64,000 bases of DNA from Candidatus Woesearchaeota archaeon (GTDB lineage: Archaea; Nanobdellota; Nanobdellia; SCGC-AAA011-G17; JACPIM01). The position numbers and the translations under genes were made by a program. The notes below the pieces were generated by a model, which worked only from the letters and a program-made list of their open reading frames with translations, was not told the origin of the DNA and made no database searches. Positions within the stretch are counted from its first letter, which is position 1; every line of letters begins with the position of its first letter. This document shows positions 42,374 through 53,917 of the stretch, in pieces. Location of the stretch: NCBI GenBank assembly GCA_043817645.1, contig JBDRGP010000013.1:21687-85686 (forward strand), in the 5' to 3' direction.

Positions 42374-42919
42374 ATGGCAAGGTGTATCAAATGTAATTAT
42401 CTTTTGGTGCTGTTGCCTAAACGAAACAAATACAAATGCAGTAAGTGTGGCAGTTTGTTTCCACAAAGTGATATAGACAACAAGGAATTCAGAAGTTGGA
42501 ACAAGAGACAGAGATTAGAAGACATTGAAAACATAAAACCAGCGAGAAAGCCAAGAGTAAAACTAAGTGATGACGAACGAAAAAGAAGAACTAAAGAATC
42601 TGCTAAAAAATGGAGAGAAAATAATAATAAAAGATGCAGAGAACTATCAGAAAAGAACTACTATAAAAACAGAGATAAAATCTTAGCCAGAAAGAAAGAA
42701 TACAGACAAGAGATAAAAGACAAGGACAGAATAAGAAGGAAAGAATACAGACATCAACAAATTAACAGAACAAGACAACTGGCAAGAATTCACTGGTGGA
42801 GACAAAAACAAAAGGCTTTAGCACTAAGAGAACTCAAAAACATGGAAGAGAAGGCTTGTAATGCCAATATATTCATTTCACCGCCCACTATTCTACATTA
42901 CCATCTACTTACAGAATAA
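42374..42919 (+). CDS. Zn-ribbon + basic coiled-coil protein whose 3' end overlaps the right TIR
   Basis: C..C...KYKC.KC; highly basic; last codons lie in the transposon end. Confidence 0.6.
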   Translation: MARCIKCNYLLVLLPKRNKYKCSKCGSLFPQSDIDNKEFRSWNKRQRLEDIENIKPARKPRVKLSDDERKRRTKESAKKWRENNNKRCRELSEKNYYKNRDKILARKKEYRQEIKDKDRIRRKEYRHQQINRTRQLARIHWWRQKQKALALRELKNMEEKACNANIFISPPTILHYHLLTE

Positions 42920-42924
42920 TAAGG

Positions 42925-42933
42925 CTTATAAAT
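42925..42933 (+). promoter_or_regulatory. archaeal TATA box for the 5S rRNA gene
   Basis: CTTATAAAT about 25-30 nt upstream of the 5S 5' end. Confidence 0.55.
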
Positions 42934-42955
42934 CCATATTATAGAGAAATTCTGT

Positions 42956-43126
42956 GGGCGACCATAGCTGCGGTGTAACACCTGTTCCCATTGGACCTGT
43001 TGGTTTTTAAGCCAATATCCGGGGAATTCGAACACAGAATTGGAAAATATCCGATGTGTAAAAGTTAAGACCGCATACGTTCCAGGCTGTACTGCACTTT
43101 GTTGTGGGAAACCTGGTTAGTTGCCC
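42956..43126 (+). rRNA. rrf: 5S rRNA gene with two internal insertions (putative BHB introns 42992-43026 and 43038-43061)
   Basis: Helix I GGGCGAC/GTTGCCC, CCATAG, helix II TGCGGT/ACCGCA, CACC.GTTCCCAT..CGAACAC.GAAGTTAAG after removing the inserts, loop E region GTACT...GGGAAA. Confidence 0.9.
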
Positions 43127-43127
43127 C
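43113..43127 (+). repeat. attL core (3' end of 5S rRNA)
   Basis: CTGGTTAGTTGCCCC. Confidence 0.85.
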
Positions 43128-43182
43128 TTTTATATTCTAGGTTCCCATTATTCTTATAAATTGACAAAATAACTGTTTCTGG

Positions 43183-44274
43183 ATGGGGGGAAGAACGCAT
43201 AAAGCTAAAGAGAGAAAGTATTACAACAAGTTAGAAGCCATCAAGACAGATAAAACTATCACTAAAGAGAATGTTAAATTAATCAATAAGTTCATGGAAG
43301 ATATTAGCTTGGGCATATCTTCTAAATGTGAAGTTGGGTTACCAACAAGATACAAATACCTCATAGATTTAGTTGTTGTTTCTAGGTGGTTCAATAAATC
43401 CTTTTCCAAAGTTAAATTTGAGGATATGAAAAGGATCATTGTTAAACTAAACAATGATGGATTCAAATCTGTAGCATTAAATAAACCATCTCAACCTTAC
43501 AGCGAGGAAACAAAAGCAAACATAAAGAGGTCAATTAAGAAGTTCTGGAAGTGGCTGTATATGAAGAAACCCGCAGAATATCAAAGAATAGCAGGGTGGA
43601 TTAAAACCAATGTAAAGGAAAAACTAGTAGACGCAGTTACAAGAGATGAAGCCAAGAAACTATTGAGCTTATGCGATAACGCTACTGAAAGATTTTTGAT
43701 TCAGGTTTTATGGGATGGTGGCTTTAGAATTTCAGAATTATTAAATGCACAGGTAAAAGACCTTATGGAGAAGAAGGAAGGCAACAAAAGGTATTATGTT
43801 CTTAATATTCACATTTCTAAAACTAGACCAAGACCTGTAGGCTTAAGATTATCAACTAAGGAGATAGAGGATTGGTTGCACGATGGACACCCAGATAGAT
43901 TAAAAGATAACTTTCAGGAGAGTTATTTATTTCCTCTTGAGTATGAGTATGTTAGAACCAAGGTAAAGGAGATTGGTAAGAAGGCAGGGATTCCATTAAA
44001 CCCTCATAAGCTTAGGCATAGCAGTTGTTCCTATTACTGCAACTTCTTAACAACTTCACAAATGTGTGTAAGATATGGGTGGAGTTTTAATTCTAAGAGT
44101 CCCGGAAGATACATCCATTCAAATGGGGTAGATGAAGGTAAAGCAACTGAGAGAGTCTATAATGATGAGTTTGCAGATTTTAGGACGCAATTAGAAGAGG
44201 AAAGAGAAAAAGTCAAGGAGCTAGAAAATAAGTTTGAGATACTGCATCAGGCAGTTATAATTAAATCAAAATGA
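43183..44274 (+). CDS. tyrosine recombinase/integrase
   Basis: G.RISELL (catalytic R), SKT (K), HKLRH, YGW, RY.H (catalytic Y). Confidence 0.93.
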   Translation: MGGRTHKAKERKYYNKLEAIKTDKTITKENVKLINKFMEDISLGISSKCEVGLPTRYKYLIDLVVVSRWFNKSFSKVKFEDMKRIIVKLNNDGFKSVALNKPSQPYSEETKANIKRSIKKFWKWLYMKKPAEYQRIAGWIKTNVKEKLVDAVTRDEAKKLLSLCDNATERFLIQVLWDGGFRISELLNAQVKDLMEKKEGNKRYYVLNIHISKTRPRPVGLRLSTKEIEDWLHDGHPDRLKDNFQESYLFPLEYEYVRTKVKEIGKKAGIPLNPHKLRHSSCSYYCNFLTTSQMCVRYGWSFNSKSPGRYIHSNGVDEGKATERVYNDEFADFRTQLEEEREKVKELENKFEILHQAVIIKSK

Positions 44275-53902: not shown

Positions 53903-53917
53903 CTGGTTAGTTGCCCC
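53903..53917 (+). repeat. attR core (duplicated 5S 3' end)
   Basis: CTGGTTAGTTGCCCC identical to 43113-43127. Confidence 0.85.

Follow-up and report, generated by a model that had tools for sequence, protein, structure and literature searches.

A 5S rRNA gene with two inserts

The window, which is the whole 64,000-nucleotide (nt) stretch of DNA analysed here, is part of contig JBDRGP010000013.1 (positions 21,687 to 85,686 of the forward strand; assembly GCA_043817645.1), and its organism is a Woesearchaeota/Nanoarchaeota-type DPANN archaeon. We investigated a 5S ribosomal RNA (rRNA) gene in the window that is interrupted by two short inserts, each with the geometry known from motifs of the bulge-helix-bulge (BHB) type. 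An original prediction, made from the nucleotide sequence, had described an archaeal 5S gene with two inserts at this locus, and this description matches the sequence base for base. A permissive Rfam scan of 42850-43250 gave a full-length RF00001 match on the forward strand at 42954-43129 (model positions 1-120). It scores 38.1 bits, where the gathering score is 38, and leaves a 64-nt block in loop C and helix III unaligned; uninterrupted relatives score roughly 55-77 bits. R1, a clade-specific covariance model that we built for a survey of relatives, scored the same gene at 100.7 bits. The RF00001 score lies barely above the threshold, and the match is lost with default or stricter filters: the default Rfam scan of the whole 64-kb window returned no 5S match, and the stricter filters used for many genomes also missed the gene. 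The expectation that an interrupted 5S gene would be hidden from standard annotation was thereby borne out. The gene limits proposed earlier (42956-43126, 171 nt, with a mature RNA of about 112 nt) needed adjustment; the gene itself stands, but the Rfam ends are 5 nt wider, giving a gene of 176 nt and a spliced RNA of 117 nt. Its parts are listed below.

42954-43129, forward strand: 5S rRNA gene, 176 nt including two inserts
42954-42991, forward strand: exon 1, 38 nt, with the 5' strands of helices I, II and III and the first 4 nt of loop C
42986-42989 with 43021-43024, forward strand: central helix of BHB 1, UCCC with GGGG, 4 base pairs (bp)
42990-42992 and 43025-43027: bulges of BHB 1, AUU (putative 5' splice site after 42991) and AAU
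42992-43026, forward strand: insert 1, 35 nt, with the inner stem GGA/UCC (3 bp), a distal 8-bp hairpin, GGGG and then the first two bases of the bulge AAU
43027-43037, forward strand: exon 2, 11 nt, made up of the final 3 nt of loop C together with the helix III 3' strand
43032-43035 with 43056-43059, forward strand: central helix of BHB 2, ACAC (in exon 2) with GUGU, 4 bp
Bulges of BHB 2: AGA, whose AG ends exon 2, and AAA
43038-43061, forward strand: insert 2, 24 nt, with the 6-bp inner stem AUUGGA/UCCGAU, a 5-nt loop, GUGU and then the first two bases of the bulge AAA
43062-43129, forward strand: exon 3, 68 nt, with the conserved AA bulge, the loop B side, the 3' strand of helix II, helices IV and V, and the 3' strand of helix I

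In alignment A2, which contains 35 uninterrupted 5S genes of relatives, insert 1 lies in loop C and insert 2 at the helix III bulge. The limits of exon 1 were taken from this alignment, from the junction that the BHB rule gives and from the best deletion found without reference to any BHB (see below). A BHB motif finder of our own returned both claimed BHB motifs identically, including their helices, bulges and inner stems, and its application of the EndA rule, a cut after the second base of each bulge, removed exactly 42992-43026 and 43038-43061. In a true BHB, as in transfer RNA (tRNA), the bulge lies 3' of the 4-nt strand, and in the window each helix strand carries a 3-nt bulge on its 3' side at both inserts.

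No Rfam family was matched by the 5S inserts in the scan of 42850-43250 at E values up to 10; the sole other match there (42933-42958, E = 9.5) was at chance level and lies upstream of both. A group I or group II self-splicing intron was ruled out, as the inserts match no ribozyme model and are only 35 and 24 nt long.

Excision in silico and the register of the motif

We scored the gene with nhmmer against a hidden Markov model built from the 35 uninterrupted relatives, and removal of both inserts raised the score from 61.1 to 94.8 bits. For the register of the motif, junctions were located blindly with respect to the BHB: deletions near each insert were scored against the same profile and kept if they fell no more than 1.5 bits below the best, with the search reaching no more than 12 nt and 6 nt from each insert. 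At both window inserts, the product given by the BHB rule was the same as that of the best blind deletion. A strict BHB (all four helix pairs, 3-nt bulges and an inner stem of at least 3 bp) appeared at the correct junction in none of 300 shuffles for each of the two.

The register test set comprised 27 inserts in 18 genes. The results showed that a strict BHB coincided with the blind junction in 21 of the 27 inserts, compared with 0.06 expected from shuffled inserts, and that a relaxed criterion raised this to 23 (1.06 expected). Among the six strict misses, three had a perfect in-register helix with the inner stem displaced by one base, one had a 2-bp inner stem, one was a natural loop C variant that scored 2.2 bits below the top, and one had three of the four helix pairs. 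Under a loose definition that accepts a 2-bp inner stem, each gene yielded 20-47 candidates by chance, so that the presence of a motif is no proof in itself and only its coincidence with BHB-blind junctions counts.

Because shuffling also destroys the hairpin, we used a second control in which the sequences were kept and the position of the helix was moved. A perfect 4-bp helix was found at offsets (2,2) from the junctions in 25/27 inserts, and at the 48 other offsets in 0-10. An inner stem of at least 2 bp directly adjoined the helix in 22/27 inserts, and three more had the stem offset by one base. On this sequence comparison, the fixed (2,2) offset is what a cut after the second bulge base would demand, and a retained hairpin would give no reason for it.

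Recurrence and covariation in related genomes

A scan of 60 relatives with RF00001 gave several matches of 133-178 nt, with the extra sequence always in the same region. We then assessed a larger sample of the order, in which 131 of 151 genomes had a 5S match and 17 carried 5S genes of 133-179 nt, distributed over 10 of 29 families. In the sister orders, that is, the remaining sample of the phylum, all from the same class, the 5S gene was interrupted in 3 of the 123 genomes with a match. Altogether, 30 inserts of 16-37 nt were present in 21 interrupted genes, 15 of them in loop C and 15 at the helix III bulge, and the insert geometry of the window recurred at the same sites in 20 other genomes while the insert sequences varied.

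The loop C inserts (site 1) follow CCAU or variants of it, and this site is occupied in 14 other genes. The second insert point is where the helix III 3' strand meets the conserved AA bulge. It exists in two forms one base apart, after ...CAG (site 2a, in the window's group and L075) and after ...CGGA (site 2b, in the others), and the whole BHB shifts along with it (alignment A5). The window gene uses site 2a, as do two relatives from its family and one sister-order genome; site 2b is used in the rest, including one genome of the window's family. The shift could reflect either intron sliding or independent gains. A relative of the same genus has insert 2 only, and one relative of the same family has no insert.

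In MAFFT alignments, the site 1 pairing held in 94.6% of cells compared with 32-73% when the partner was slid, and the site 2b pairing in 97.3% compared with 30-46%. One pair of the site 1 helix changed from C-G to U-A in two sequences, and both sides changed in five of the six pairs of the site 2b inner stem. Across sites and clades, the 3' end of the intron tracked the exon (ACAC/GUGU, ACCC/GGGU, CUCG/CGAG or CGGG, UCCC/GGGG or GGGA, and UCUC/GAGA). The outer helix at site 1 has 3 bp in 11 of 14 genes, which gives those genes the full canonical hBHBh' motif. A survey of related DPANN 5S loci for presence or absence of inserts and for covarying BHB helices had been proposed at the outset; it revealed patchy inserts and a helix that follows the exon.

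A search for the site-2a pattern returned eight matching records, two archaeal (Woesearchaeota and Nanoarchaeota) and six bacterial, the latter a number within chance. A pattern scan of metagenomes for spliced or intron-less forms returned only two contigs, both with bacterial-type 5S that shared only the conserved loop C region. No 5S match was obtained, even with the clade model, in 20 of the 151 genomes of the order, three of them at least 95% complete (G033, G108 and G110); in these 20 genomes the 5S gene may be either unassembled or more heavily interrupted.

Two further loci of the survey were unusual. An 81-nt 5S-like gene in one relative (L064, G122 C60:20970-21050) has its own TATA-like box; helix III and loop C are missing from it, as is the 5' strand of helix II, and it may be either a deletion derivative or something stranger. 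A split 5S was considered for this genome (85% complete) and rejected: the only other match (17.1 bits, E = 0.27) is without the expected pairing and looks like chance. In the 5S gene at L063 (G061 C2:26078-26559), the 3' half lies within a run of N.

Predicted folds of the precursor and the product

The minimum-energy fold of the 176-nt RNA had an energy of -56.8 kcal/mol, in which helices I, II, IV and V were kept and helix III and loop C were replaced by two hairpins. When helix III was enforced with the inserts retained, the energy was -50.2 kcal/mol, 6.6 worse than the minimum-energy fold, and the inner pairs of helix III had a probability of 0.003 in the precursor ensemble. The central-helix pairs of BHB 2 reached probabilities of 0.87-0.93 in the same ensemble. 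The minimum-energy fold of the 117-nt in-silico product was the canonical three-helix-arm 5S. These predictions indicate that the canonical 5S fold is restored only after excision.

Splicing enzymes and other interrupted genes of the genome

We then examined the genome for the enzymes of BHB splicing. EndA is encoded on contig C14 (52233-52757) as a 175-amino-acid (aa) protein of the alpha type with both the N- and C-terminal domains (PF01974 with 95 bits, and PF02778), and RtcB is encoded on C37 (PF01139, 568 bits). The closest solved relative of this EndA is the catalytic subunit of N. equitans. A second EndA subunit was not found with PF01974 (E up to 0.01) or with the EndA protein itself (E up to 10); as the genome is 90.9% complete, we describe it as not found rather than absent.

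The tRNA genes of this genome, 22 by ARAGORN and 28 matches by Rfam, include interrupted ones. We examined ten long tRNA loci, of which eight match RF00005, and six of them have an insert in the anticodon loop only. One tRNA gene has a 30-nt T-loop insert with a full BHB and a 4-bp outer helix, and another has an 18-nt D-arm insert together with an anticodon-loop insert. The D-arm insert has the relaxed form, and its bulges, AGA and AAA, are those of 5S insert 2. These non-standard inserts lie at L082 (G000 C13:19635-19735) and L088 (G000 C13:20339-20445).

The 23S gene contains a group I intron of 323 nt (RF00028, 70.4 bits; positions 4783-5105 of L077, G000 C29:16700-23200). The 23S gene exceeds the Rfam model by about 1070 nt, with further inserts beyond the group I intron, and the 16S gene exceeds its own by about 120 nt.

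Copy number of the 5S gene

The genome has one 16S and one 23S gene. A second, uninterrupted 5S copy, with the window locus untranscribed, had been named beforehand as an observation that would speak against splicing, and such a copy exists on paper: a full-length 5S gene (C36:7795-7909, L056) lies on an 8-kb contig of the same bin and scores 59.8 bits with RF00001, but the contig appears foreign to the organism. With R1 this gene scored 81.5 bits, and it is without the helix IV/V sequence signature of the clade. The RPA protein encoded on C36 shares 39% identity with the one on C34 and 36-43% with those of 28 relatives, whether close or distant; the RPA on C34 is 71% identical to that of the same-genus relative and 57-62% identical to those of three family members. 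The gene for tRNA-Leu(AAG) is duplicated on C36. Base composition did not separate C36 from the other contigs. Because of the divergent RPA, the duplicate tRNA-Leu(AAG) and the 5S without the clade signature, C36 is most likely bin contamination from another archaeon of the same class, which fits the contamination estimate of 3%. No second 5S match was found in any of the 16 other interrupted genomes of the order sample. These comparisons indicate that the interrupted gene is the single 5S gene of the organism.

Proposed splicing of the 5S transcript and alternative explanations

We propose that the inserts are spliced BHB mini-introns of the relaxed HBh' form, removed by EndA, with the exons joined by RtcB, and we assign this a probability of about 0.7. 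The new class of EndA substrates put forward in the original prediction is supported to this degree by the parts that sequence can test, namely register, recurrence, presence or absence, fold and enzymes; the cutting and joining themselves, and the enzymes responsible, are what we infer from these parts. Before processing, the end of each upstream exon and the 3' end of the intron after it would form a 4-bp helix in the primary transcript. With its two flanking 3-nt bulges and the intron hairpin, this helix would belong to an alternative fold that replaces helix III and loop C. The organism's own 175-aa EndA would then cut after the second base of each bulge, and RtcB would join the exons (38, 11 and 68 nt) and would probably circularise the introns. 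The product would be a 117-nt RNA that folds as canonical 5S.

We also lean towards a broader view, in which 5S genes of the Woesearchaeota-type order, and more rarely those of sister orders, gain and lose BHB mini-introns of 16-37 nt at three fixed positions (loop C and the two one base apart at the helix III bulge), with at most two per gene. The 5S rRNA would then be an unrecognised class of substrates for the archaeal machinery that splices tRNA, and some cases of 'missing 5S' in DPANN genomes would be failures of annotation. Since the precursor would not take up the 5S fold before EndA and RtcB had acted, splicing would serve 5S as a gate to ribosome assembly.

Several results weigh against splicing. 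The outer helix adjoining the motif has no pairs at either window insert (h_out = 0), as had been foreseen in the claim that the outer helices are weak and the motif relaxed; with no adjoining outer helix, both window motifs have the relaxed HBh' form only. At site 2 in general, the outer helix has 0 bp in 10 of 13 genes. The inner stem is offset by one base in the site-1 inserts L035, L037 and L042, and the central helix of L061 and L073 has only three of its four pairs. The 4-bp helix at site 2b never changed on both sides, and compensatory change in the 4-bp helix itself appears to come from few independent events. When both BHB registers were enforced on the 176-nt RNA, the energy was -52.3 kcal/mol, 4.5 above the minimum-energy fold. 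The exact register of BHB 1 is rare in the ensemble (probability about 0.005), since thermodynamics favours one that is shifted by one base and has a 2-nt bulge. As to the enzyme, EndA aligns to the M. jannaschii enzyme without gaps and is without the 6-residue insertion of the N. equitans alpha subunit. The alpha4 EndAs have long been regarded as strict, and, according to the available text of PMC5829648, DPANN alpha4 enzymes that have an additional 'L3' loop are associated with disrupted tRNA genes; an L3 loop in the EndA of this genome could not be established.

The main rival, which we consider unlikely, is that the inserts are retained expansion segments, staying in the mature 5S as small hairpins whose BHB-like shape is incidental or a relic. 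The inserts are indeed short hairpins, and their sites are those where bacterial 5S keep expansions: loop C (34-37) and the helix III bulge (52-53), the least obstructed sites in the ribosome in the available text of a published survey (PMC7812874). This agreement of sites, the lack of an outer helix in the window motifs and an EndA that looks like the plain alpha type speak for retention and to that extent against splicing. The bacterial retained segments are described in that text as lacking complementarity to the 5S core, whereas every insert here pairs with the upstream core through its final 4-6 nt, and the resulting helix keeps its fixed offsets in all but two of the 27 inserts and follows the changes of the exon. 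The pairing between insert and core also competes with helix III, at the 6.6 kcal/mol penalty and inner-pair probability of 0.003 given above. Retention would also give no reason why the hairpin is off centre, with its start 1 nt past the 5' junction and its end 6 nt short of the 3' junction, and the full hBHBh' motif in 11 of the 14 site-1 genes likewise argues for splicing.

Excision without rejoining, which would leave a 5S of two or three pieces that base pairing keeps together, seems highly improbable. BHB geometry predicts cutting only, and fragmented rRNAs are known in other lineages. The genome encodes RtcB, which is needed anyway for its many intron-bearing tRNA genes, and the middle fragment would be 11 nt long and held by 4-6 pairs only. 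Finally, we give next to no credence to a decaying or spare gene in the window, with the functional 5S on C36 or unassembled: the bin does hold that uninterrupted full-length 5S in a genome that is incompletely assembled (90.9%), but C36 is marked as foreign by its RPA identities, duplicate tRNA-Leu(AAG) and 5S without the clade signature, the window exons keep all helices and resemble 5S genes of the same family, and the other interrupted genomes (16/16) manage without a second 5S match.

Flanks of the gene and a neighbouring integrase

An open reading frame (ORF) for an unassigned 181-aa protein lies upstream of the 5S gene and a tyrosine recombinase ORF lies downstream, and ARAGORN found no tRNA in the window. 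Two features of the immediate flanks were read from the sequence.

42926-42933, forward strand: TATA-like box TTATAAAT, which precedes the 5S 5' end by 21-28 nt
43128-43131, forward strand: T-run TTTT at the 3' end of the gene

The box lies at the usual position of an archaeal TATA element and is a candidate promoter of a stand-alone 5S transcription unit; a similar TATA-like box is found upstream of the 5S gene in the relative L064. The T-run is a possible archaeal terminator.

The tyrosine recombinase ORF (43183-44274; PF00589, 48 bits) begins 54 nt past the 5S gene. An exact copy of that gene's final 15 nt (43113-43127) is present at 53903-53917, 10.8 kb downstream, within a 22-nt match with three mismatches, and two matches occurred in none of 100 shuffles. 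Almost all ORFs between the repeats are without a Pfam family. The segment 43128-53917 looks like an integrated element that may have used the 3' end of the 5S gene as its attachment site, as other elements use tRNA genes.

Significance

If the inserts are spliced, this would be the first intron-bearing 5S rRNA gene on record that we have found, judged from a literature search. The search covered 5S together with BHB introns, Woesearchaeota and other DPANN archaea and turned up nothing on introns in 5S rRNA; supplementary files lay outside it. Splicing here would widen the substrates of EndA from tRNA, 16S and 23S rRNA and a few messenger RNAs (mRNAs) to the smallest rRNA, and would make 5S splicing a step in how DPANN archaea build their ribosomes. 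The relaxed motifs would fall to a single EndA of the plain alpha type, which would test the need for extra loops or subunits. The sites shared with bacterial 5S expansions suggest that tolerance of an unspliced insert may govern where introns settle. In the available text of a complete-genome survey of the phylum (10.64898/2026.05.13.725050), genomes with 16S and 23S genes but no detectable 5S are reported, and introns offer one testable reason for them.

Comparison with known systems

The group I intron in the archaeal 23S gene is also an rRNA-gene intron of the same genome, but it is self-splicing and 323 nt long, whereas the 5S inserts are far too short for a ribozyme and belong to no Rfam family.

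Among 5S expansion segments, the available text of PMC7812874 describes one of 108 nt in Halococcus morrhuae at 104/105, one of 46 nt in Thermoanaerobacterium at the helix III bulge and clostridial inserts in loop C, and gives 104.1-105 as the sole archaeal insertion site known to the survey. The window gene shares with them an oversized gene and, at loop C and the helix III bulge, the sites. In that text the expansion segments are retained and fold on themselves, whereas those of the window gene are paired to the core as in a BHB, displacing helix III. The same text allows that some 5S inserts might prove to be excised.

The relaxed HBh' introns of pre-tRNAs in Crenarchaeota, Nanoarchaeota and ARMAN resemble the 5S inserts in that the outer helix is weak or missing and several short introns can occupy one gene. 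They are present in DPANN genomes with many disrupted tRNA genes, as far as the available text of PMC5829648 goes, and the D-arm tRNA insert of this genome has the same form. The enzymes shown to cut relaxed HBh' motifs are (alpha-beta)2 or epsilon2 types with extra loops, whereas one plain 175-aa alpha-type subunit was found here.

The BHB introns of archaeal 16S, 23S and tRNA genes, processed by EndA and RtcB, are similar in having two 3-nt bulges, a 4-bp helix and a cut after the second bulge base. As in the window gene, their central helix is formed by the upstream exon and the 3' end of the intron, their distribution is patchy among close relatives, and both enzymes are encoded. The differences are that the host RNA here is 5S, that the putative introns are tiny (16-37 nt) and without ORFs, that their splicing is deduced from sequence, and that two of them lie in one 117-nt RNA, with a middle exon of 11 nt.

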